In this document: piece by piece, positions 3,798-31,725 of the stretch
Layout: each line of letters starts with the position of its first letter
How positions within the stretch are numbered: the stretch's first letter is position 1
NCBI GenBank assembly: GCA_000503915.1
Contig: CP006915.1
Location: 660,001-692,000 of the forward strand
Length of the DNA stretch: 32,000 bases
DNA from: Candidatus Saccharimonadota bacterium
GTDB lineage: Bacteria > Patescibacteriota > Saccharimonadia > Saccharimonadales > Saccharimonadaceae
Direction of reading: 5' to 3'
Made by a program: the position numbers and the translations under genes
The notes under the pieces: generated by a model
The model's database searches: none
What the model was told of the DNA's origin: nothing
What the model saw: the letters and a program-made list of their open reading frames with translations, nothing else

Positions 3798-3873
3798 TGG
3801 CAGGGGCAGCAGGACTTGAACCTACGACACCTGGTTTTGGAGACCAGTGCTCTACCAACTGAGCTATGCCCCT
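3798..3873 (-). tRNA. trnW: tRNA-Trp (anticodon CCA), 3'-CCA encoded
   Basis: Minus-strand read: AGGGGCATAGCTCAGTTGGTAGAGCACTGGTCTCCAAAACCAGGTGTCGTAGGTTCAAGTCCTGCTGCCCCTGCCA. It has a 7-bp acceptor stem, anticodon loop CTCCAAA and T-loop GGTTCAAGTCC. Confidence 0.93.
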
Positions 3874-5011: not shown

Positions 5012-6214
5012 ATGAACATATTGATGCTTGGGTGGGAGCTGCCGCCACATAACAGCGGTGGACTTGGCGTGGCTTGTTACCATTTGTCAAAAGCCTTAAG
5101 CCTTCAGGGTGCATCGATTGATTTCGTTGTGCCTTATCAGGGGACTCATCCCGAAGCTTCATTTATGAATGTACTGAGCGCGACAACTCTTTCTCCTCTT
5201 GAGCGTTATGGGCTTGGTGCTTACGATAGCGCCGTTGTCTCACCGGAGGAAACGAATCTTGGCGATATGCGTAGCGTCCAGAAACGCTATGGAAAGTTTG
5301 TCGAGAAGCTGCTCGAGACTTCTCGCCCCGATGCGATCCACGCGCACGACTGGCTAACGATGGAAGCGGGGATACTCGCCAAAAAACGCACTGGTGCACC
5401 GCTCATCGTACATGTTCATGCTACGGAGTTCGACCGTGCCGGCGGTACGTATGGCAACCCACTGATTCACGAGATCGAAGAACAGGGCTTACTGATGGCC
5501 GACCAAGTTATTGCCGTCAGCAATGTAACGAAGGCATTGATCGTCCAGCGCTATAAGGTGCCAGCGGAGAAAGTTCAGGTAGTCCACAACGCCTTTGAGG
5601 CGGCGGACTTCGTCGGTCACGAATATAATGAGCGAACGTACCGTTACCTAGAAAGTCTCAAGGACGAGGGTTATACGATCGTCGCCACGGTAACCCGCTT
5701 TACGCTGCAAAAAGGTCTGGTGCATTTGTTAAAAGCGGCGGCACGATCATTGGAGCGCTATGATAAACTAGTCTTCTTGCTGGCCGGTGATGGCGATCAG
5801 CGTGACGAACTGCTGCGACTCAGCGCCGACCTTGGTATTGCCGACAAAATAATTTTTACTGGTTTTGTGCGTGGACAACAGTGGCGCGACGTCTACCATG
5901 TGGCCGACATATTCGTTATGAGCTCAGTGAGCGAGCCGTTTGGTCTGACTGCGCTGGAAGCGGCTCATCATGATAATGCGCTCATCATCACCAAGCAATC
6001 CGGTGTCGGTGAAGTGCTCGACAGTATTTTTCGCTATGATTTCTGGGATGAAGAGAAACTAGCCGATCAGATCGTAGGGCTGGCGTTGTCAACGGCACTC
6101 ATGCACGAAATGCGCAGTAATATAAAGCAGGAATACGCTCGTTTATCCTGGGATCAGGTAGCCAGGACTTGCCTGGCGCTTTATCGCGGCGTGCCGTCTG
6201 GAGTGAAAATATGA
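5012..6214 (+). CDS. GT-B glycosyltransferase, alpha-glucan (glycogen) synthase-like (GT4/GT5 type)
   Basis: 400 aa. The N-terminus MNILMLGWELPPHNSGGLGVACYHLSKAL resembles the GGL motif of glycogen synthases. The C-terminal SEPFGLTALEA is the retaining GT-B motif. Confidence 0.8.
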   Translation: MNILMLGWELPPHNSGGLGVACYHLSKALSLQGASIDFVVPYQGTHPEASFMNVLSATTLSPLERYGLGAYDSAVVSPEETNLGDMRSVQKRYGKFVEKLLETSRPDAIHAHDWLTMEAGILAKKRTGAPLIVHVHATEFDRAGGTYGNPLIHEIEEQGLLMADQVIAVSNVTKALIVQRYKVPAEKVQVVHNAFEAADFVGHEYNERTYRYLESLKDEGYTIVATVTRFTLQKGLVHLLKAAARSLERYDKLVFLLAGDGDQRDELLRLSADLGIADKIIFTGFVRGQQWRDVYHVADIFVMSSVSEPFGLTALEAAHHDNALIITKQSGVGEVLDSIFRYDFWDEEKLADQIVGLALSTALMHEMRSNIKQEYARLSWDQVARTCLALYRGVPSGVKI

Positions 6215-7440
6215 TCAAGCCTGGCATTACTCTCTATCTCCATGTTCATCAGCCGTGGCGGGTACGACGCTACTCGATCTTTGATACCGCCCAGCGTCAT
6301 GATTACTTTAACGACCAAGACCACTCGTCCGAACGGAATAATCGCTATATTTTAGAAAAGGTCGCCGATAAGTCATACCGGCCGATGAATGCCCTGCTCG
6401 AAAAACTACTCGGGAGGCATCCGGAGTTCAAGCTTTCACTCAGTATTACCGGTACCTTTATCGAGCAATGCGAGCAGTGGGCACCGGATGTGCTGGCAAG
6501 TTTTCAGCGGTTGGTGGATACCGGCCGGGTTGAGATTGTGGCGGAGACGTACCACCATTCACTAGCGTTTTTCTACAGTCATGATGAATTTGAGCGTCAG
6601 GTGGCGCTGCACGAACAGAAGATCCAGGAGCTATTTGGCATCAAGCCGACAGCTTTTCGCAACACCGAGCTGGCGTATAATGATGAGCTGGCCAAATGGG
6701 CGGATAACCGTGGCTATAAAGCGATTTTGGCCGAGGGGTGGGATAAGGTGTTGGGCTGGCGAAGCCCTAATTATCTCTATAAACCAGCGAACACACACCA
6801 GATCGGCCTATTGCTCAAAAACTATCGCCTAAGCGATGATGTTGCCTTTCGATTTAGCGACAAACAGTGGCCGCAGTATCCCCTGTCCGCCAATACCTAT
6901 ACCGCGTGGGCAGAGACCGCTCTCAACAACGGACCACTTATCAACTTGTTTATGGACTACGAAACATTTGGTGAACACCAGTGGGAAGATACCGGTATCT
7001 TTTCATTCTTTGAACAGTTCGTCGGTCGGTGGCTGAGCGGCGGCCAGCATACTTTTTATACTGTTTCTGAGGCTGCGACGACATTTTCTCCTGCCGGAGA
7101 GATATCTATGCCAGAAACGGTTACTTGGGCCGATACAGAACGCGATCTCACCGCTTGGCTTGGCAATGGCATGCAGCGCGAGGCAATGCGCTACCTCTAT
7201 AGCATGGAAGACGATATTATCCGGACGGGCGACCTGGGATTGATCGCTGACTGGCGCAGTCTCCTTACTTCCGACCACGTCTACTACATGTGTACCAAAT
7301 GGTTCCATGACGGTGACGTACACGCCTATTTCAGCCCCTATGATTCTCCTTATGATGCATTTCTCTATGTTATGAATGTGATTAGAGACCTGCGCTACCG
7401 ATTAATGGCCTATCATCATGTGGGAGGCGGCCATGGCTAG
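6211..7440 (+). CDS. glycoside hydrolase family 57 protein
   Basis: The start at MIKPGITLYLHVHQPWR (H-x-HQP motif of GH57) overlaps the upstream stop as ATGA (6211-6214). FRNTELAY and MDYETFGEHQWE segments are consistent with the GH57 catalytic regions. Confidence 0.8.
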   Translation: MIKPGITLYLHVHQPWRVRRYSIFDTAQRHDYFNDQDHSSERNNRYILEKVADKSYRPMNALLEKLLGRHPEFKLSLSITGTFIEQCEQWAPDVLASFQRLVDTGRVEIVAETYHHSLAFFYSHDEFERQVALHEQKIQELFGIKPTAFRNTELAYNDELAKWADNRGYKAILAEGWDKVLGWRSPNYLYKPANTHQIGLLLKNYRLSDDVAFRFSDKQWPQYPLSANTYTAWAETALNNGPLINLFMDYETFGEHQWEDTGIFSFFEQFVGRWLSGGQHTFYTVSEAATTFSPAGEISMPETVTWADTERDLTAWLGNGMQREAMRYLYSMEDDIIRTGDLGLIADWRSLLTSDHVYYMCTKWFHDGDVHAYFSPYDSPYDAFLYVMNVIRDLRYRLMAYHHVGGGHG

Positions 7441-9379
7441 ACCGATCGTCCTATCAAACGGTGAACTGCATGTCGGCATCAACACCTATGGCATGGTGCA
7501 CGATTTTTACTTTCCTTATGTCGGCTTTGAAAACCATTCGGCTGGAAAGGATACTCGTCATAAGGTGGGCGTATGGTGTGATGGCCAAATAAGCTGGCTC
7601 GATGATTCGGATTGGCAGATTACGCAGCAAATAGCATCCGGAGCGCTGATCGGTCATACCAAAGCCTGGAATGAGCAGCTCGAAATACTACTCGAATTTG
7701 ACGACTTCATCACCACACACACGAATGCTTTTATCCGCAACATCCATGTTGTAAATCTGAAAAGCGAAGAGCGTGACATCCGTCTCTTTATGCATCAAGC
7801 GTTCGCTATCGGTGATTCGCGGAGCAATACAGATACGGCGCAGTATTTACCCGATAGTGACGCCGTACTTCACTACCGGGGTCGACGCGCCTTCATTATC
7901 GGTGGCAAGACAGCTCACGGCCTACCGTTTGACCAACACTCGATTGGTCTTTTCGGGATCGAAGGACGCGAGGGCACCTACCGAGACGCCGACGATGGCA
8001 ATCTGTCAGGGAGCAATGTCGAACATGGTCGCGTTGATTCGACGATTCGCTTTCAACTCTTAGTTCCAGGCCACGAATCACGACGAGTAAGTTACTGGAT
8101 TGCCGCTGGCACTTCGATGCGTGAAGCGCTAATGGTGCATCGTCAGATGCAGGAAAAGGACACTAGTTACCATCTGGCCCAGACTGTGAACTGGTGGGAC
8201 GAGTGGCTTCAGCCGGTGTACGTGGCTGCCGACAAACTGCCGACAAAATATCGCGAGTTGTTTATTCATAGTGCACTGGTGATCAAGGCGCACATCGACA
8301 AGCGCGGCGCAGTCATTGCGAGTAGCGACACCTCGATGCTCAACTATTCGCGCGATGCCTATGCCTATTGCTGGCCCCGTGACGGCGCCTATGCGCTGTG
8401 GCCACTGATGCGGCTTGGCTATGAGGCTGAAGCGCGCCAGTTCTTTGAGTTCTGTCGACGCGGGCTCCATCCAAACGGATACTTGATGCATAAATACCGG
8501 GCAGACGGCGCACTGGGCTCGAGCTGGCATCCTTATGTTCATGGAACGGAAAGCGCGCCGCCGATCCAAGAGGACGAAACTGCACTGACGCTCTTTATGT
8601 TTGCGCAGTATTATCATCAGCAGGAAGACAAAGCGCTGCTCGACGAATTTTACGACTCGATGGTACGACCGATGGCAGACTTCATGGCAAGCTATGTCGA
8701 TCAACTAACTGGCTTGCCGCGGCCAAGCTATGACCTATGGGAAGAAAAGTTCCTGACGACGACCTATACGACTGCGGTTGTGCAAGCCAGTCTTGCGGCG
8801 GCTGCCGAACTTGCTGAAATCATGGATGATGGAGATAATGCCGTCAAATGGCGAACTGCCAGCGATGACATGATCGTGGCGGCTCATAAATATCTTTACA
8901 ACCACAAGCGAGAGGCATTTTACAAAGGGCTTATCGTAAAGAATGACCAGATCGAATTCGATGAGACGATTGATGTCTCCAGTTTTTACGGCGTGTACAT
9001 GTTTGGACTTTTCTCGAGTCGCAGCGAGGAAGTGACGCAAATGTACCAGACATTGACCGATACGTTTCATCTTAGCGACAAGTCACCTGGCTTGCCTCGC
9101 TACGAATACGATGAATATCATCGGATCGATACTCATTCACTCGGCAATACCTGGGTAATTACGTCGCTTTGGCTGGCACAGTATTCACTTGAGGTACACG
9201 ATCAGCCACAGGCTATGGCTATTCTGGACTGGCTTGACCGAAACGTTGGCGCGGCGAACATGCTCGCGGAGCAAATCGATCCCAGCTCTGGTGCTCCACT
9301 GTCGGTCTCACCCCTCGTGTGGAGCCATGCAGAGTACATGGCTACCCTGCTCGATCTCACGATGGAGCAATCCTCATGA
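7433..9379 (+). CDS. glycoside hydrolase family 15 (glucoamylase/glucodextranase-like)
   Basis: About 648 aa. YCWPRDGAYALWPL and the (alpha/alpha)6-type C-terminal half are typical of GH15. I prefer the ATG at 7433 because of the GGGAGG SD 6 nt upstream. It overlaps the GH57 stop by 8 nt. Confidence 0.85.
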   Translation: MARPIVLSNGELHVGINTYGMVHDFYFPYVGFENHSAGKDTRHKVGVWCDGQISWLDDSDWQITQQIASGALIGHTKAWNEQLEILLEFDDFITTHTNAFIRNIHVVNLKSEERDIRLFMHQAFAIGDSRSNTDTAQYLPDSDAVLHYRGRRAFIIGGKTAHGLPFDQHSIGLFGIEGREGTYRDADDGNLSGSNVEHGRVDSTIRFQLLVPGHESRRVSYWIAAGTSMREALMVHRQMQEKDTSYHLAQTVNWWDEWLQPVYVAADKLPTKYRELFIHSALVIKAHIDKRGAVIASSDTSMLNYSRDAYAYCWPRDGAYALWPLMRLGYEAEARQFFEFCRRGLHPNGYLMHKYRADGALGSSWHPYVHGTESAPPIQEDETALTLFMFAQYYHQQEDKALLDEFYDSMVRPMADFMASYVDQLTGLPRPSYDLWEEKFLTTTYTTAVVQASLAAAAELAEIMDDGDNAVKWRTASDDMIVAAHKYLYNHKREAFYKGLIVKNDQIEFDETIDVSSFYGVYMFGLFSSRSEEVTQMYQTLTDTFHLSDKSPGLPRYEYDEYHRIDTHSLGNTWVITSLWLAQYSLEVHDQPQAMAILDWLDRNVGAANMLAEQIDPSSGAPLSVSPLVWSHAEYMATLLDLTMEQSS

Positions 9380-10032
9380 AACGTATTACCACTCGTCTAC
9401 AGAGCGCTCTGACAACGAATTCAGAAAAGAAGTTGATCACGAGTTTTGCCGAGCGCTGTGGCATGGTATACTTTGGATTTGTCAGCCAGCTGCGCGACGA
9501 ACACCGTATGGTGCGCGGCCTGACGGTATCCACGCGACATCGGGACAGGCACTACTGTATCGGAACCTATGAGGGCTATAATGTGACGTTTGTGGAGCGT
9601 AGCGATAGGATTCTGACGAATCACAGGCACAAGTGGCATATCCTCGAATTTGAGCTTAAGACAACCGCCGACCACCCGCATCTCTTTATCGGCTCGGATA
9701 AGCACGGTCTCGGCTTCCATGCACTTTTAAAAGCAAAGTATCCGATCATGAAACCACTACCGCTCGGGACAACTGCCGAATATCCAGCTGTGTTTACCGA
9801 CTATTTTCGTGTCTATACCCGACCGACGCATGCGGTCGAGGCAGAGCAACTCGTCACGCCCGAGATCGCCGGGCTACTCGGTGAGCATTTCAAGGGCTTG
9901 GCTGCCGAAGTGGCGCAACATTCCGTTTACGTCTACTCTGAACATGAGCAGATTACTAGTCGCCTACTCGACGTCATGATGGCCAACGGTATCTGGCTGG
10001 CGAAAGCGATCGATAAAAAATACCAGGCATAG
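9376..10032 (+). CDS. hypothetical protein, translationally coupled to the GH15 gene
   Basis: The start at MKRITTRLQSAL overlaps the GH15 stop as ATGA (9376-9379). 218 aa, His-rich, no motif I can name. It ends inside a strong terminator hairpin. Confidence 0.6.
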   Translation: MKRITTRLQSALTTNSEKKLITSFAERCGMVYFGFVSQLRDEHRMVRGLTVSTRHRDRHYCIGTYEGYNVTFVERSDRILTNHRHKWHILEFELKTTADHPHLFIGSDKHGLGFHALLKAKYPIMKPLPLGTTAEYPAVFTDYFRVYTRPTHAVEAEQLVTPEIAGLLGEHFKGLAAEVAQHSVYVYSEHEQITSRLLDVMMANGIWLAKAIDKKYQA

Positions 10033-10359: not shown

Positions 10360-10435
10360 TGGAGCCATCGTCGGGGGTTGAACCCGAGACCTCATCCTTA
10401 CCATGGATGCGCTCTACCAACTGAGCTACGACGGC
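10360..10435 (-). tRNA. trnT: tRNA-Thr (anticodon GGU), 3'-CCA encoded
   Basis: Minus-strand read: GCCGTCGTAGCTCAGTTGGTAGAGCGCATCCATGGTAAGGATGAGGTCTCGGGTTCAACCCCCGACGATGGCTCCA. It folds as a cloverleaf with anticodon loop ATGGTAA. Confidence 0.9.
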
Positions 10436-10506
10436 ATAGGGCCTCTGCCGCGCATGTGCTCTACGATTTTTACGCATGGAGCGGCGATGACACTAGCAAA
10501 TAAAAA

Positions 10507-10591
10507 TGGTACCGGAGGTAGGACTCGAACCTACGAAGCTTAAAAGCGGGAGATTTACAGTCTCCTGTCATTGCCACTAGACGACTCCGGC
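10507..10591 (-). tRNA. trnY: tRNA-Tyr (anticodon GUA), long variable arm, 3'-CCA encoded
   Basis: Minus-strand read: GCCGGAGTCGTCTAGTGGCAATGACAGGAGACTGTAAATCTCCCGCTTTTAAGCTTCGTAGGTTCGAGTCCTACCTCCGGTACCA. The anticodon loop is CTGTAAA. Position 1-72 would be a G-U pair. Confidence 0.85.
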
Positions 10592-10609
10592 ATGTACAGA
10601 TTGTTAATA

Positions 10610-10686
10610 TGGAGCCGCTTCTCGGACTCGAACCGAGGACCTACTGTTTACAAAACAGTTGCTCTAACCAACTGAGCTAAAGCGGC
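10610..10686 (-). tRNA. trnT: tRNA-Thr (anticodon UGU), 3'-CCA encoded
   Basis: Minus-strand read: GCCGCTTTAGCTCAGTTGGTTAGAGCAACTGTTTTGTAAACAGTAGGTCCTCGGTTCGAGTCCGAGAAGCGGCTCCA. The anticodon loop is TTTGTAA. Confidence 0.9.
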
Positions 10687-18955: not shown

Positions 18956-19201
18956 TTATGCAGCGACGCTTGGTCGCTCGTCTCGTAGGCGGAAGCTGAT
19001 TCGTCCCTTCGTGAGATCGTAAGGGGTCATCTCAACTTCTACCTTATCACCCGGTACCAGGCGGATATAGTGCTTGCGCATTTTGCCGCTGATGTGGGCG
19101 ATGATACTATGACCATTCTCCAGTTCCACCTTGAATTGGGTATTAGGCAGTGCTTCCACTACCGTACCTTGCATCTTAATTACTTCCTTTTGACTGGCCA
19201 T
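18956..19201 (-). CDS. infA: translation initiation factor IF-1
   Basis: 81 aa, with G.V.E.LPN..F.VELENGH...[27 protein letters not shown]. Confidence 0.95.
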
Positions 19202-19216
19202 AAATTACAATTGTTA

Positions 19217-19245
19217 ATTATACACGAAGAAGTGCCTAGCGTAAA
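19217..19245 (-). promoter_or_regulatory. infA proximal promoter (TTTACG-N17-TATAAT)
   Basis: Minus-strand read. The -10 box ends 15 nt before the infA ATG, and there is no SD in between. Confidence 0.5.
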
Positions 19246-19306
19246 GTGTTTTACAAGAGATTCTAACGTGAATTTTCTCACGCAGTGTTAGGTCGGATTA
19301 CATTCT

Positions 19307-19334
19307 ATTGTAGCGAAAATGATAATATCGTCAA
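19307..19334 (-). promoter_or_regulatory. infA distal promoter (TTGACG-N16-TACAAT)
   Basis: Minus-strand read. It is a near-consensus sigma70-type pair placed directly after the GC hairpin at 19343-19370. Confidence 0.5.
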
Positions 19335-19342
19335 GTTTGTAC

Positions 19343-19769
19343 GGGCGGGCGCTAATGAAAGCGCCCGCCCTTGTTGCCCTGAGTTTTTTGTCAACTTCGA
19401 TGTCCCTACGGAATGTGAGTACGAGACCCTGGGCGGTTACTCTGAGCTCACGCCATCTGATGTTTTCACATCCGTCAACCTCGAGCTTTAGGCTTGCGCC
19501 CGTGCTCGGCTCATCACTGCAACTTCAGGGCATTTCAACCCATACAGTAGGTGAGGTCACCGGGTATCTAATCCGGTAGCAGGAAGGCCAAGTATCCCAC
19601 CGTTTGAAGGATGTCAAACACTCCTTCAGGCCTAGATGAATGGAGTAATCCACTCACCGCCCTGCGATAGCTTTACGCCACCAATCTTGCGACCGCGCAG
19701 CACAGTTCTTTCGCAGACAGCAAACACTGTTTTTGGCATCCGCTACGGATCCTCCTTCCAGCGTTTGTT
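19343..19769 (-). ncRNA. candidate structured RNA of unassigned class (strand and ends provisional)
   Basis: The gene-bearing strand has no usable ORF. An extended -10 box lies at 19776-19784, followed by multiple hairpins, several with GNRA loops on the minus-strand reading. A terminal 10-bp G/C hairpin sits at 19343-19370. Details are in the findings. Confidence 0.35.
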
Positions 19770-19775
19770 GAGGCT

Positions 19776-19784
19776 ATTATACCA
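19776..19784 (-). promoter_or_regulatory. extended -10 box TGGTATAAT immediately after the sortase-like stop codon
   Basis: Minus-strand read: TAA-CCCTG-TGGTATAAT-AGCCTC. It has the same box type as the other promoters in this window. Confidence 0.45.
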
Positions 19785-19789
19785 CAGGG

Positions 19790-20473
19790 TTACTTACGGA
19801 CAGCACGGAGGATTGTACGGTAGCTATAGTCTGCATTTTTTGGCACCCAGTGACCACTTGACGTAATTACCGATAACCCTTCTTTAGTGTCATCGACGGG
19901 GTACATTGCCTGCGGGATGCCAGTCTTTAGTGCGTTTAGAGTCGGCATCTCGTGAACATCGTAGACAGTATAGGTAAATCTTTTACCGTCACCGCGCTCA
20001 AGCTTTATCACATCGCCTGTCTTTAGATCGGTAAGACGCGCTAGTACGCCGTTTCGCGCCTTGCCTCTACTATGACCATTGAGCACGACAGCTCCATAAT
20101 CTTGTCCCGGTTGCGCACTCTCGCTGTACCAGCCGACGTCGTCCAAATATTTAGGTTGTTCAAACTGACGGTGGCTGTCGAGCTTGATCGGAGTGATACG
20201 TGCGTTCTCTATGCCAAGCTTAGGGATCGAGAAGTAGCGTGGTTCATCAGCCTTGACAGTATAGTTCTTACGCTGCTCTTGACTCACCGGAGTCTCATTG
20301 ACGCTCGGGTCGGCAGAGGCTATCGGTAAATTAAACGGCAATTCGCCCGTGTTGTACCAACGAAGGCCATAGTAGCCGATGAGAATAATAAGGGCAAGAA
20401 ATATAAGACGTAAAATCCACCGCACTGGGCTAAAGCTACGTGTTTGTTTTATTTCTAGTCCCGTTGCCATCAC
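19790..20473 (-). CDS. membrane-anchored sortase-fold protein lacking the catalytic cysteine
   Basis: 227 aa with an N-terminal TM helix. It shows the class E/F sortase-like pattern: YFSIPKLGI...VGWY...PGQ.GAVVLNGHS...L..LK.GD.I......FTY.V. The expected L.TC.G site reads LSVITSSG, and the conserved Arg is present (YRTILRAVRK). The start is GTG at 20473 or ATG at 20470. Confidence 0.7.
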   Translation of the reverse strand: MMATGLEIKQTRSFSPVRWILRLIFLALIILIGYYGLRWYNTGELPFNLPIASADPSVNETPVSQEQRKNYTVKADEPRYFSIPKLGIENARITPIKLDSHRQFEQPKYLDDVGWYSESAQPGQDYGAVVLNGHSRGKARNGVLARLTDLKTGDVIKLERGDGKRFTYTVYDVHEMPTLNALKTGIPQAMYPVDDTKEGLSVITSSGHWVPKNADYSYRTILRAVRK

Positions 20474-20509
20474 AGGTTATTTTAGCACGAGCACTTTAGC
20501 TAGTAAACG

Positions 20510-21925
20510 CTACTTGTAGTCGTCGTAAGTGACCATCAGCGCCCGCGAGTTGATCTGTCGCAGGCTCTCGAGAGCCACTGATACGACGATCAGGATACCG
20601 GTGCCACCGATAGCCAGGTTGCTGTTTTGTACCCCAGCAAACTGATAAAGGATATACTCAGCGATATACGGCAGAACGGCGATGGCACCCAGTACGAACG
20701 AACCGAAGAGAATCAAGCGGTTCATAGTACTCGAAAGATATTTTTCGGTTTGCTCACCTGGCCTGATGCCTTCGATAAAGCCACCTTGTTTTTGCAGATT
20801 CTCGGCAATCTCGTTGGCATTAAAGACAATGCCGGTATAAAAGTAAGTGAAGGCGATCACAAGCAGAAAATACATACCAGGATAGATAAAGGCTTGCGCC
20901 GTACTGCCGGTAAACTGGCCAGGATTTGGCGTCTGAAACCAAGTGATAAGATTGTTGCCGATCTCAACGTAGTCAGCATTACCAGTAGCCTTTAGTACCT
21001 GTCCGATGAAGGCTGGCAAGCTAAGGAATGCCACGGCGAAGATGACGGGGATCACGCCGGCAGCGATCAGTTTCATCGGTAGAATACTTTTGACACCACC
21101 GTACGACGAGTTTCCCTGCACACGCTTGGCGTAATTGATCGTTACAACGCGCTGGGCTTCATTGATCTTTACGAGCAGGTACAAGACAGCCAGTGAGGCT
21201 AGCACGATCGCCAGGACGATCCAGAATGCCAGCGGGTTAATAGGTAGCTCAAACCAGCCGAAGACACTGAGGCCACCAGAAGACGTGTCAACGAGCGAAG
21301 CACCGATTGATTGCAGTGTCTGCGGCATCTGACTAACAATGCCGGCAAAGATCAGCAAGCTAAGTCCGTTACCGACACCTTGTTCGGTCATGATCTCACC
21401 GAGCCACATCAACAGAATCGAACCTGCAGTCATAGCACCAACGGCAACTACCCACTGCATTAGCGAGGTATGGTCGAGTGCCGTGGTAGTGTTGCCCGCA
21501 AGTACCGACTGACGCAGAATATAGACGAAGGCGATTGACTGCACCACGGCAAGTGGCACGGTAATGATACGTGTCCACTGCTGGATCTTACGTCGACCTG
21601 ACTCACCGTCTTTATGCAACTCCTCGAGCTTGGGTACGGCTTTTGTCAGTAGCTGCGTGATAACGCTGGCGGTAATAAATGGACTGAGGCCGACAAGGAC
21701 GACCGAGAAGCTAGCCAGTGCCCCACCGGATAATAAGTTCAAGAAGCCACCAAAATCGCTGCCACTGACAACGCTATTGATGACTTCTTTCATTTGAGCA
21801 GGCTCGGCGAGAGGTACGGGTATATGAGCCAGGAAGCGATAAATCACAACAAGACCGAGCAGCACCAGCAAACGCTTGCGCATATCGGTATTCTTCAGTG
21901 ATTTAATGATAGTTTTCCAGTTCAT
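20510..21925 (-). CDS. secY: preprotein translocase subunit SecY
   Basis: 471 aa with 10 TM segments. It contains LGI.P.IT and GG.I.GIRPG..T..YL motifs, and sits after rplO. Confidence 0.95.
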   Translation of the reverse strand: MNWKTIIKSLKNTDMRKRLLVLLGLVVIYRFLAHIPVPLAEPAQMKEVINSVVSGSDFGGFLNLLSGGALASFSVVLVGLSPFITASVITQLLTKAVPKLEELHKDGESGRRKIQQWTRIITVPLAVVQSIAFVYILRQSVLAGNTTTALDHTSLMQWVVAVGAMTAGSILLMWLGEIMTEQGVGNGLSLLIFAGIVSQMPQTLQSIGASLVDTSSGGLSVFGWFELPINPLAFWIVLAIVLASLAVLYLLVKINEAQRVVTINYAKRVQGNSSYGGVKSILPMKLIAAGVIPVIFAVAFLSLPAFIGQVLKATGNADYVEIGNNLITWFQTPNPGQFTGSTAQAFIYPGMYFLLVIAFTYFYTGIVFNANEIAENLQKQGGFIEGIRPGEQTEKYLSSTMNRLILFGSFVLGAIAVLPYIAEYILYQFAGVQNSNLAIGGTGILIVVSVALESLRQINSRALMVTYDDYK

Positions 21926-24038: not shown

Positions 24039-24070
24039 ATCTTATCCTTTCTTATTCGCAGAATATATTT

Positions 24071-24472
24071 CTAGTAGATCTTTAGCAGTACTTCACCGCC
24101 AAGACGCTGTTTAACCGCTTCGTAACCAGTCATGACACCTTTTGATGTCGAGACGAGAACGATGCCTCGGCCGCTTTTGACGCGCGGTATATCGCTAGCA
24201 CTGACGTACATGCGACGACCTGGCTTTGACATACGTGTCAACTCAGTGAATGTTGCGTTTTTGCCAGCTTCATTGATAGTAATCACGAGCGTGCCACGTG
24301 GCTTACCATCCTCGACTTTAACATCGGCGAGGTAGCCATTCTTCTTCAGTTGCTCAGCGACGACTTTTTTCAGTTTGCTGATTGGTACGCGGACTTCAGT
24401 CTTGCCCACCATTGCAGCGTTGCGGATCCGGGTCAGGAGATCAGCGATTGGGTCTGTAGATTGTAAACTCAT
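24071..24472 (-). CDS. rpsH: 30S ribosomal protein S8
   Basis: 133 aa, with DPIADLLTRIRNA and GGEVL..IY. Confidence 0.95.
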   Translation of the reverse strand: MSLQSTDPIADLLTRIRNAAMVGKTEVRVPISKLKKVVAEQLKKNGYLADVKVEDGKPRGTLVITINEAGKNATFTELTRMSKPGRRMYVSASDIPRVKSGRGIVLVSTSKGVMTGYEAVKQRLGGEVLLKIY

Positions 24473-30861: not shown

Positions 30862-31725
30862 ATGTATCGTTTCGTCGCGCGACATAAACTCACCTTCGGC
30901 GTTACACTTCTCGCGTGTCTCAGCAGTGGCTTTTTTGTGCTTGTTGTTTCTCGAGTAGAACAAGGGCGAGCAAATGCTTTGAATAACAAACAGGACGCAG
31001 CATTTGCCAAACTGGACGAGGCGGTTCGTACACGACTTGCCAGGCAGAAAGCCACCCTAGCAGCTGAAGCCAAAGAGAGAAAAACAGCCGAAGCCATGCA
31101 GAATAAGCAGTCGTCGCTACCATCAGCTCGGGTGCCATCAGTCAATTCCGCACATTACGACCCTCATCGGCTTGATATTGTCGTCAATAAAAAGCATCCA
31201 CTCAACCCCCGAGACTTTGTGCCGAGCCTGTCGACTGTCACTTGTGCCGGGCGCGGCTCTACGACAATCAGTACCCAGGTAGTTGCGGACTTCCAAGCTC
31301 TCTGCCAGGCTGCTGTCGAGGCTGCCGTGCCGCTTGATAGTTCCAGTAGCTACCGTTCGTATCAAACCCAAGTCAATACCTACAATTATTGGGTATCCGT
31401 CAGTGGTAAAAGTGGCGCCGATACGTACAGCGCCCGTGCTGGCTATAGTGAGCACCAGACGGGGCTAGCAGTTGACTTCCGCGTACCGAGCGGCGCAACG
31501 CTTAGTGACTTTACTGGTACGCCTCAGCAGAAGTGGCTTGCCAAGAATGCCTGGCGATACGGCTTCATCCAACGCTACACCAACAGTAACCAGCGCGAAA
31601 CTGGTTACACAGCTGAAAGCTGGCACTATCGTTACCTTGGACGCGAGACTGCTGAAGCATACACCGCGAGCCATACCAATTCACTTGAGTCATATTGGGG
31701 CATTTCTGGGGGAGACTATGAATAA
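30862..31725 (+). CDS. M15-family D-alanyl-D-alanine carboxypeptidase (VanY-like), membrane-anchored
   Basis: 287 aa with an N-terminal TM helix. It contains VNKKHPLNPRDFVPSL, SEHQTGLAVDF and ESWHYRYLG, which are the VanY/M15B zinc-ligand motifs. TATACT ends 7 nt upstream of the ATG. Confidence 0.8.
   Translation: MYRFVARHKLTFGVTLLACLSSGFFVLVVSRVEQGRANALNNKQDAAFAKLDEAVRTRLARQKATLAAEAKERKTAEAMQNKQSSLPSARVPSVNSAHYDPHRLDIVVNKKHPLNPRDFVPSLSTVTCAGRGSTTISTQVVADFQALCQAAVEAAVPLDSSSSYRSYQTQVNTYNYWVSVSGKSGADTYSARAGYSEHQTGLAVDFRVPSGATLSDFTGTPQQKWLAKNAWRYGFIQRYTNSNQRETGYTAESWHYRYLGRETAEAYTASHTNSLESYWGISGGDYE

Follow-up and report, generated by a model that had tools for sequence, protein, structure and literature searches.

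The window analysed here is a stretch of 32,000 nucleotides (nt) from a Candidatus Saccharimonadota bacterium (contig CP006915.1, positions 660,001 to 692,000), and the gene of interest is a coding sequence on its minus strand at 19790..20470. It encodes a Cys-less sortase-fold protein of 226 amino acids (aa), identified from the open reading frame (ORF), Pfam, an AlphaFold2 (AF2) model, and Foldseek. The ORF itself covers 19790-20473(-). Translation probably starts at ATG 20470 rather than at GTG 20473, because the orthologs all begin with MATGLEIK and the database entry of the exact protein (P0001) has 226 aa. Residue numbers given here nevertheless follow the 227-aa numbering from the GTG at 20473. 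The window has a GC content of 0.50, and the GC content of the sortase-like gene is no different from that of its surroundings. The gene lies between secY (20510..21925, minus strand), the invariant upstream neighbour, and infA (18956..19201, minus strand), the conserved downstream neighbour. Both neighbours were recognised as ORFs, and in homologous loci by the Pfam matches SecY and eIF-1a. The closest genomic relatives are Candidatus Saccharibacteria metagenome-assembled genomes (MAGs).

A first-pass annotation, made from the letters of the window, had described this ORF as a sortase-like protein with an N-terminal anchor and no cysteine, encoded directly after secY. The motifs that it quoted (YFSIPKLGI, VGWY..PGQ, AVVLNGHS, GD.I, LSVITSSG, and YRTILRA) are all present in the translation, the codons ACG TCA AGT GGT stand at 19853-19864 as it said, and the count of cysteines in the whole protein is zero. 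The membrane anchor is likewise seen in hydropathy and in the AF2 model. Residues 19-37 (WILRLIFLALIILIGYYGL; 20363..20419, minus strand) form the best hydrophobic 19-mer, with a mean Kyte-Doolittle value of 2.16, and the AF2 helix spans residues 16-42. A basic tail precedes this segment and points to a type-II (N-in) topology, which would place the C-terminal domain outside the cytoplasm. The cytoplasmic N-terminal tail (residues 2-8; window ~20450-20470) has a G-L-x-I motif, with G5 and L6 in 100% and I8 in 90% of the Cys-less set of relatives described below. Such a tail in a type-II protein hints at a cytoplasmic contact. Directly after the anchor comes a juxtamembrane WYNTGELP segment (residues 39-46; 20336..20359, minus strand), which was delimited by column conservation and alignments.

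The sortase layout is confirmed by both sequence models and fold comparison. Pfam PF04203 matches the protein over model positions 3-124 of 125 with 51 bits (E 1.5e-13), where the gathering cutoff is 26.6. Among the NCBIfam models, the class F sortase NF033748 scores best, with 79.7 bits, an E-value of 1.7e-22, and 147/155 model positions; this is below the model's cutoff of 166, yet class F is the best-matching class. The class E sortase model NF033747 gives a partial match of 24.8 bits against a cutoff of 160, so the protein is not assigned to class E. The final AF2 model, built from 72 homologs, has a predicted local distance difference test score (pLDDT) of 93.5 and a predicted template-modelling score of 0.86, and it replaced an earlier 7-sequence model with a pLDDT of 70.9. 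In Foldseek, all top-50 PDB matches of this model are sortases with a probability of 1.00, in keeping with a sortase beta-barrel. A single-sequence PDB search detected no sortase, and the 72-sequence profile was required. The assignment to the sortase fold is far beyond chance. The TLxTC catalytic Cys is missing, as its column holds Ser205. The protein is thus a superfamily member by sequence and fold that lacks the defining catalytic feature, and it should not be filed as a sortase enzyme.

The solved sortases used for comparison are Actinomyces oris SrtC-1 (2xwg) and group B Streptococcus SrtC1 from class C, Thermobifida fusca SrtE (9iok) from class E, Clostridium perfringens SrtD (4d70) from class D, Streptococcus pyogenes 7s4o from class A, and Corynebacterium diphtheriae SrtF (5uus). 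They share the eight-stranded beta-barrel with the modelled protein (TM-score normalised to the target 0.5-0.67), while their sequence identity to it is 13-22%. All solved sortases use a Cys nucleophile, and the only Cys-less structures among the matches are engineered ones, such as SrtE C222A and SrtA C208A. Class F sortases (NF033748) occur in Actinomycetota, Chloroflexota, and Saccharimonadales, where they are annotated as "class F sortase". In common with them the window protein has PR.L.IP..G, D.GWY..S..PG, the GH segment, the G after the nucleophile position, the R..V.A strand, and the N-terminal anchor. It differs in having no TLxTC Cys, a degenerate HNGG, an additional WYxTGxxP after the anchor, and a fixed place beside secY. 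The long class F sortases of Saccharimonadales have 300-400 aa and lie elsewhere, beside their substrates, whereas the window protein has 226 aa.

The three catalytic positions were located by alignment. The nucleophile Cys position corresponds to Ser205 (codon TCA, 19859..19861, minus strand) and not to Ser206 (AGT). The ortholog P0007 reads LITCSG where the window protein reads VITSSG, and a profile alignment to IVTCT of C. perfringens SrtD (4d70) also puts the Cys at Ser205. In this profile alignment, GH and T-S-S-G of the window protein fall on GH and T-C-T of 4d70. The first-pass annotation had considered AGT to TGT, a single substitution, as the change that separates the gene from a Cys codon. 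That was the wrong codon; the Cys column is TCA, and TCA to TGY takes two substitutions. His134 (CAT, 20072..20074, minus strand) aligns with the family His, as in iaGHR of SrtD, and Arg219 (CGT, 19817..19819, minus strand) aligns with the family Arg. The motif around the His is degenerate in the window protein, with HSRG in place of HNGG.

The loss of the nucleophile is common among the relatives. A profile search gave 8750 relatives, and 33 of the best 150 cluster representatives are Cys-less, carrying S, P, E, D, T, A, N, Y, V, Q, R, or W instead. The window protein belongs to the secY-linked short sortase lineage of Saccharibacteria (~225-245 aa), a grouping defined in this analysis by a score of 255 bits or more with the profile A3 of the clade; its own score is 319 bits. 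The clade set comprises 62 distinct proteins. The loci L005, L025, and L026 were weak partial matches (26-53% identity over 34-79 residues) and were left out of the analysis. Cys is present in 17 of these proteins and absent from 45, so Cys-bearing members are the minority. The Cys-less proteins have 12 residue types at the column: Ser (in only 2), Pro, Glu, and also N, Y, T, D, A, G, Q, R, and V. The column reads S, P, E, E, E, D, and C in the seven closest proteins, S being the window protein. The closest alleles, which are 66-69% identical in aa sequence and whose flanks are 86-97% identical in nt, have Pro or Glu. The possibility raised at first pass that close orthologs would all carry Cys is therefore not borne out, as the nearest alleles are without it.

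The remainder of the active site is also altered. In 22/45 Cys-less proteins, Y, R, N, or A stands at the position of the catalytic His, and the HNGG motif occurs in 17/17 Cys-bearing and 0/45 Cys-less proteins, while the Arg at the catalytic position is kept in 43/45 of the latter. The loci L001 and L002 have Tyr at the His position together with Pro at the Cys position, and the Saccharibacteria MAGs UBA2951 and UBA2952 have the same two replacements. A column comparison that included 27 Cys-less proteins found no other conserved nucleophile specific to this group. Judged from these alignments, the function of the protein cannot depend on a nucleophile at position 205, because the column is variable, the His is often lost, and the closest alleles have Pro or Glu. 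Cys-bearing members keep DGHNGG...ITC...R and are annotated as class F sortase or LPXTG-site transpeptidase. The Cys-less members are entered in databases as "hypothetical protein".

Neighbour-joining trees place the Cys-less proteins and the minority of Cys-bearing proteins (~225-245 aa) in one clade with the two states interleaved. With the catalytic columns removed, and with Cys assumed not to be regainable, the tree requires at least ~13 separate losses of Cys. The residues at the His, Cys, and Arg positions differ within clear sister pairs: P0198 (HCR) stands with P0017 (YYR), P0170/P0009 (HCR) with P0011/P0026, and the L003/L018 group (HCR) with L001/L002 (YPR). The trees thus show that the loss of Cys has been recurrent within one orthologous locus.

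The dead copies are under purifying selection. L001 and L002, which are both catalytically dead, differ by a proportion of nonsynonymous differences (pN) of 0.095 and a proportion of synonymous differences (pS) of 0.74, and P0003 and P0004 have a ratio of nonsynonymous to synonymous substitution rates (dN/dS) of 0.09. The Cys-bearing pair L003-L018 is comparable, with a pN of 0.16 and a pS of 0.75. Full-length ORFs without frameshifts are found in more than 40 diverged lineages with genomes under 1 Mb, and dozens of lineages with a full-length ORF are mutually less than 50% identical. The column comparison covered 27 Cys-less, 18 sister Cys-bearing, and 100 other class-F-like proteins. H134, T204, C205, M186, and L147 are lost specifically in the Cys-less set. 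P78, R79, R92, P107, D112, W115, Y116, S119, P122, and G123 are conserved in all three sets, and so are G133, G142, G161, Y168, G207, R219, and A224. P211 is conserved in the Cys-less set alone, as are the residues W39, G43, and P46 of WYxTGxxP; these three have 92-100% conservation in the Cys-less clade versus 18-40% in Cys-bearing relatives. As a sequence pattern this is a pseudoenzyme signature, in which the scaffold is kept and a new constraint has appeared near the membrane. The purifying selection on dead pairs, the intact ORFs, the kept framework, and the newly conserved positions together indicate that the gene is not decaying.

The position beside secY is conserved. The secY stop lies at 20510, on the same strand and 36-39 nt upstream of the gene, and secY is directly upstream in 18/18 distinct loci drawn from NCBI, ENA, JGI, and Logan, Cys-bearing and Cys-less alike. 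In most loci infA follows the sortase-like gene after a variable interval. In bacterial spc operons, the interval from secY to infA usually holds adk and map. Both are absent at 18956-21925 and in all related loci, where the sortase-like gene and a variable slot stand in their place. The distance to secY varies, from an overlap with the secY stop (L014 and L004) through a gap of 8-9 nt (L011 and L013) to one of 37 nt in the window group. This 37-nt spacer contains a promoter-like element TTTAC-N17-TGCTAAAAT (20479..20507, minus strand), predicted by a consensus scan and a comparison of upstream regions. Its -10 box ends 8 nt before the ATG, and the element is kept in L006, L016, and L017; the transcript may be leaderless. 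In L008 a terminator-like hairpin followed by TGGTATAAT lies between secY and the gene. The first-pass annotation had suggested constitutive expression tied to the Sec translocon. The synteny part of this proposal stands, whereas co-transcription with secY is not guaranteed because of the promoter-like element and the hairpin of L008.

A link between sortases and the Sec machinery has been reported for active enzymes. Housekeeping sortase A co-localises with the Sec translocase (SecA) in Enterococcus faecalis and Streptococcus mutans, while Streptococcus pneumoniae SrtA shows no such co-localisation (PMC3188284). A sortase tied to the site of Sec export fits the invariant gene order of secY and sortase. 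The link in cocci is, however, spatial, concerns active enzymes, and is not universal, whereas that in Saccharibacteria is genomic and concerns an inactive protein.

The gene also forms the core of a divergent segment (19585..20500, no strand assigned) that was delimited by sliding identity, BLAST, and synonymous distances. A 13-kb contig (L006) has 95-100% nt identity to the window over the ribosomal-protein operon, secY, and infA. Its identity falls to 53-78% exactly at the secY stop and stays low throughout the gene, sinks to 20-48% over the initial ~200 nt of spacer beyond it, and returns to 83-98% beyond 19585. Between the window and L006, secY is 97% identical in nt, with a synonymous distance (dS) of 0.15 and a nonsynonymous distance (dN) of 0.003, whereas the sortase-like gene is only 55-78% identical between such near-identical genomes and has a saturated pS of 0.78 and a dN of 0.23. 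L006 and L016 have a dS of 0.13 over codons 1-115 and a pS of 0.89 over codons 116-226, and their downstream spacers also differ. The first 115 codons are thus common and the remaining 111 codons and the spacer are divergent, which places a breakpoint inside the gene. The outlier pair has 99.4% identity in secY and 66.8% in the sortase, against a trend in which 96.6% in secY goes with 84% and 91% goes with 64-74% in the sortase. The more distant pairs L001-L002 and L003-L018 have no anomaly. The simplest reading of these comparisons, which come from one group of near-identical genomes, is that the cassette was replaced homologously by old, divergent alleles, each under purifying selection. A search of JGI metagenomes with an exact 42-nt secY pattern, aimed at more alleles with identical flanks, gave 0 matches.

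A diversity-generating retroelement was considered for this segment and rejected. No repeat longer than 22 nt exists within 19150-20520, so there is no template/variable pair, no reverse transcriptase is found among the window ORFs scanned, and the divergence affects the whole gene and all bases. The otherwise 95-97% identical 10-kb alignment of L006 with the window has only one other break. It is an insertion of ~180 nt between rpsH and rplF (L006 2185-2364, at window ~24054-24071), which contains a 59-aa ORF with no Pfam match and has no counterpart in the window.

The active relatives are genuine sortases, judged by the substrates encoded beside some of them. In L022, a 655-aa protein (979-2946) is encoded directly downstream of a Cys-bearing secY-linked sortase. 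It has a signal peptide and ends with LAPGTG, a hydrophobic stretch, and RRRDHRR, and it is likely to be the substrate of the adjoining sortase; it is absent from all other loci. Long class F sortases of Saccharimonadales (300-390 aa) lie at other loci, each right after a secreted APDTG or TPNTG protein. Examples are L027 (3925-7047) and L028 (4369-6969), in which class F sortases of 322-348 aa follow secreted proteins of 686 and 530 aa that end with APDTG or TPNTG, a membrane segment, and a basic tail. This suggests an [AT]PxTG sorting signal in Saccharimonadales. Sortases and predicted sorted proteins were also reported in the RAAC3 TM7 genome by Kantor et al. (PMC3812714). Four long class F proteins from outside the window (P0056, P0085, P0094, and P0137) have Ser at the nucleophile column. 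P0085, P0094, and P0137 keep the His, and P0056 has Gln there. These proteins may be better candidates for genuine Ser variants, or may reflect single-base errors.

The 588-nt spacer between the gene and infA (19202..19789, minus strand) has no coding potential and a strong predicted structure, and it corresponds to an accessory slot of variable content, occupied by other genes in relatives. Compared with shuffled controls, the folding of 19325-19770 has a z of -4.3. The long spacers of five other loci (L006, L016, L007, L003, and L009) have z values of -3.5 to -5.8, and the short spacers of L017 and L011 have values near 0. The stop codon is directly followed by a promoter-like TGTGGTATAAT, and towards its 3' end the folded stretch contains a perfect GC hairpin, GGGCGGGCGC-N8-GCGCCCGCCC (at an estimated ~19330-19360). 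The spacer also contains the 16S-like 13-mer GGATTAGATACCC. Across lineages only the 50-150 nt adjoining infA are conserved and the central spacer is not. Rfam searches of the window and 7 loci, run with gathering as well as E-value thresholds, yielded nothing but a spurious match to the L20 leader, which was sub-threshold and on the wrong strand, and ARAGORN found no tRNA and no tmRNA in the spacer. No remnants of the L022 substrate gene were found in the window spacer. A family of small antisense ORFs is present between the sortase (or the substrate) and infA in one Saccharibacteria group, namely in L001 (7246-7563, minus strand), L002 (~7159-7377, minus strand), L018 (3644-3868, minus strand), and L022 (3019-3306, minus strand). 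These ORFs are not in the window. They encode 75-106 aa, are 40-64% identical, and have a repeated motif of the type MSDExVKQxLMxLR.

Elsewhere in the window, a glucan-metabolism cluster at 5012-9379(+) comprises a GT4/GT5 glycosyltransferase, a GH57 enzyme, and a GH15 glucoamylase-like enzyme. A VanY-type D-Ala-D-Ala carboxypeptidase and a tRNA cluster were listed with the positions 30862-31725(+) and 10363-10686(-). There are four tRNA genes, three of them clustered and the fourth at 3801-3873. The ORFs 1447-2145, 2533-2895, and 9319-10032 have no Pfam match.

The secY-linked gene is likely to encode a recurrently evolved, catalytically dead pseudo-sortase that is retained under selection for a non-enzymatic role. 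It belongs to a lineage of short (~225-aa), membrane-anchored, class-F-like proteins that are always encoded directly after secY in Saccharibacteria. The ancestral form of this lineage is taken to be a Cys-bearing true sortase, because DGHNGG...ITC...R is kept in some members and one ortholog stands beside an APGTG protein. Many sub-lineages, including that of the window, have lost the nucleophile Cys and often the His, while keeping the fold, the anchor, the active-site Arg, and the D-x-x-W-Y-x-x-S-x-x-P-G segment, and gaining WYxTGxxP. In sortases, this Arg and the D-x-x-W-Y-x-x-S-x-x-P-G segment are located on that side of the barrel which binds the signal. Their retention makes continued peptide binding the most economical hypothesis. 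The pseudo-sortase would accordingly be an extracytoplasmic binding or scaffolding module without enzymatic activity. Its most likely role would be to hold a sorting-signal-like or cell-wall (stem) peptide near the Sec translocon, and it may also be a partner or regulator of an active sortase. WYxTGxxP and the cytoplasmic GLxI tail could mediate membrane contacts, perhaps with the translocon, and exposure in the envelope may lead to the exchange of alleles between strains. A more detailed version is offered only tentatively, namely that a dead sortase, arisen independently about ten or more times from an active ancestor with a linked substrate, is kept as a part of the secretion or envelope machinery, either as a holdase or receptor for proteins with sorting signals or as a regulator of the long class F sortase, and that the swapping of its alleles between near-identical strains suggests pressure from phages or the host bacterium.

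Several points weigh against the pseudo-sortase interpretation. The window allele has His134, Arg219, and Ser205, and this one allele may have residual hydrolytic activity. The gene has a promoter-like element of its own, so its expression may not be coupled to that of secY. The 32-kb window contains no active sortase, and a permissive scan that recovered the control substrates of L027, L028, and L022 found no sorting-signal ORF in it. Word-indexed protein searches turned up no further sortase on the same contig, although this negative is a weak one. The neighbour-joining trees are crude and have no support values, and the number of independent losses is accordingly a rough figure.

Other explanations of the missing Cys are less probable. 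An inactivating mutation confined to this strain can practically be dismissed, and so can an error of sequencing or assembly, since the identical protein occurs on 5 contigs of independent assemblies, one of them from a sediment metagenome, and two of these match the window over 6681/6681 nt; moreover, all four closest alleles are Cys-less and a Cys codon is two substitutions away. The first-pass annotation had left the choice between a serine-nucleophile enzyme and a non-catalytic pseudoenzyme, and the evidence favours the latter. In a serine-nucleophile sortase, a Ser205-His134-Arg219 triad would cleave or ligate sorting signals through an acyl-O-enzyme. The window allele does have Ser exactly at the Cys column with His134 and Arg219 kept, and Ser also occurs in 4/5 Cys-less outliers of the unrelated long class F group. 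The Ser is not conserved, however: it is replaced by Pro or Glu in the nearest alleles and is one of 12 residue types, present in just 2 of the 45. The loss of His in about half of the Cys-less members, the lack of an alternative conserved nucleophile in their clade, and HSRG in place of the motif that is invariant in Cys-bearing members also make this enzyme very improbable.

The remaining two explanations concern why the gene persists and varies. A decaying relic, whose catalysis ceased to be of use once the substrate had gone and which now drifts towards deletion without a function, would agree with the repeated loss of catalytic residues, with a substrate gene in the downstream slot of a single Cys-bearing locus (L022) and no trace of it elsewhere, and with an evolution much faster than that of secY. 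The strong purifying selection on the dead pairs is hard to reconcile with drift, as are full-length ORFs in such diverged lineages of genomes below 1 Mb and the keeping of ~15 framework positions and Arg219 along with the gain of W39, G43, P46, and P211. The relic is hence improbable. Alternatively, the protein may matter mainly as an exposed envelope protein, such as a receptor for phages or a surface recognised by the host or by competitors, in which diversifying, frequency-dependent selection drives allele replacement and no sortase-related role is required. The cassette-like divergence with sharp boundaries between flanks of 95-100% identity, the saturated synonymous sites, the intragenic breakpoint, and the variable adjacent slot are in line with this. 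There is no signal of positive selection, as dN is far below dS wherever it is measurable, and the conserved flanks (secY and infA) could favour homologous replacement without selection. The pattern is also known from a single group of close genomes, with the distant pairs unremarkable, and the short linker suggests a domain close to the membrane, beneath the wall. Diversifying pressure of this kind is unlikely, though it is compatible with a pseudo-sortase.

The literature searched, which covered few subscription journals, yielded no account of sortases without Cys, of a sortase linked to secY, or of sortase pseudoenzymes. Dead members of enzyme families are common in general. The iRhoms, which are dead rhomboid proteases, are pseudoenzymes derived from membrane-associated hydrolases. 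They resemble the pseudo-sortase in the loss of catalytic residues, the retained fold, and the purifying selection, and by analogy a substrate-binding or regulatory role is plausible. The fold and the organisms are unrelated, however, and in the sortase, which has no known partner or client, the loss occurred many times at one orthologous locus. This recurrence is distinctive, and so are the unbroken linkage to secY, the motif gained after the anchor, and the replacement of alleles as a cassette.

Sortases, which are drug targets, are a textbook case of cysteine transpeptidases. A natural clade in which the nucleophile was given up many times while selection continued points to a second, non-catalytic function of the sortase fold. 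A "sortase" match has been taken as a sign of Gram-positive-like surface anchoring in the candidate phyla radiation/Patescibacteria (PMC3812714, PMC6744442). As 45/62 secY-linked members appear incapable of sortase chemistry, an active-site check is required before wall anchoring is inferred. The secY linkage gives a concrete hypothesis on the organisation of protein export in ultra-small episymbionts, and cultivable, genetically tractable Saccharibacteria exist in which it is testable. The sharp allele replacement makes the gene a candidate for strain-level envelope diversity within an otherwise clonal, highly conserved operon.

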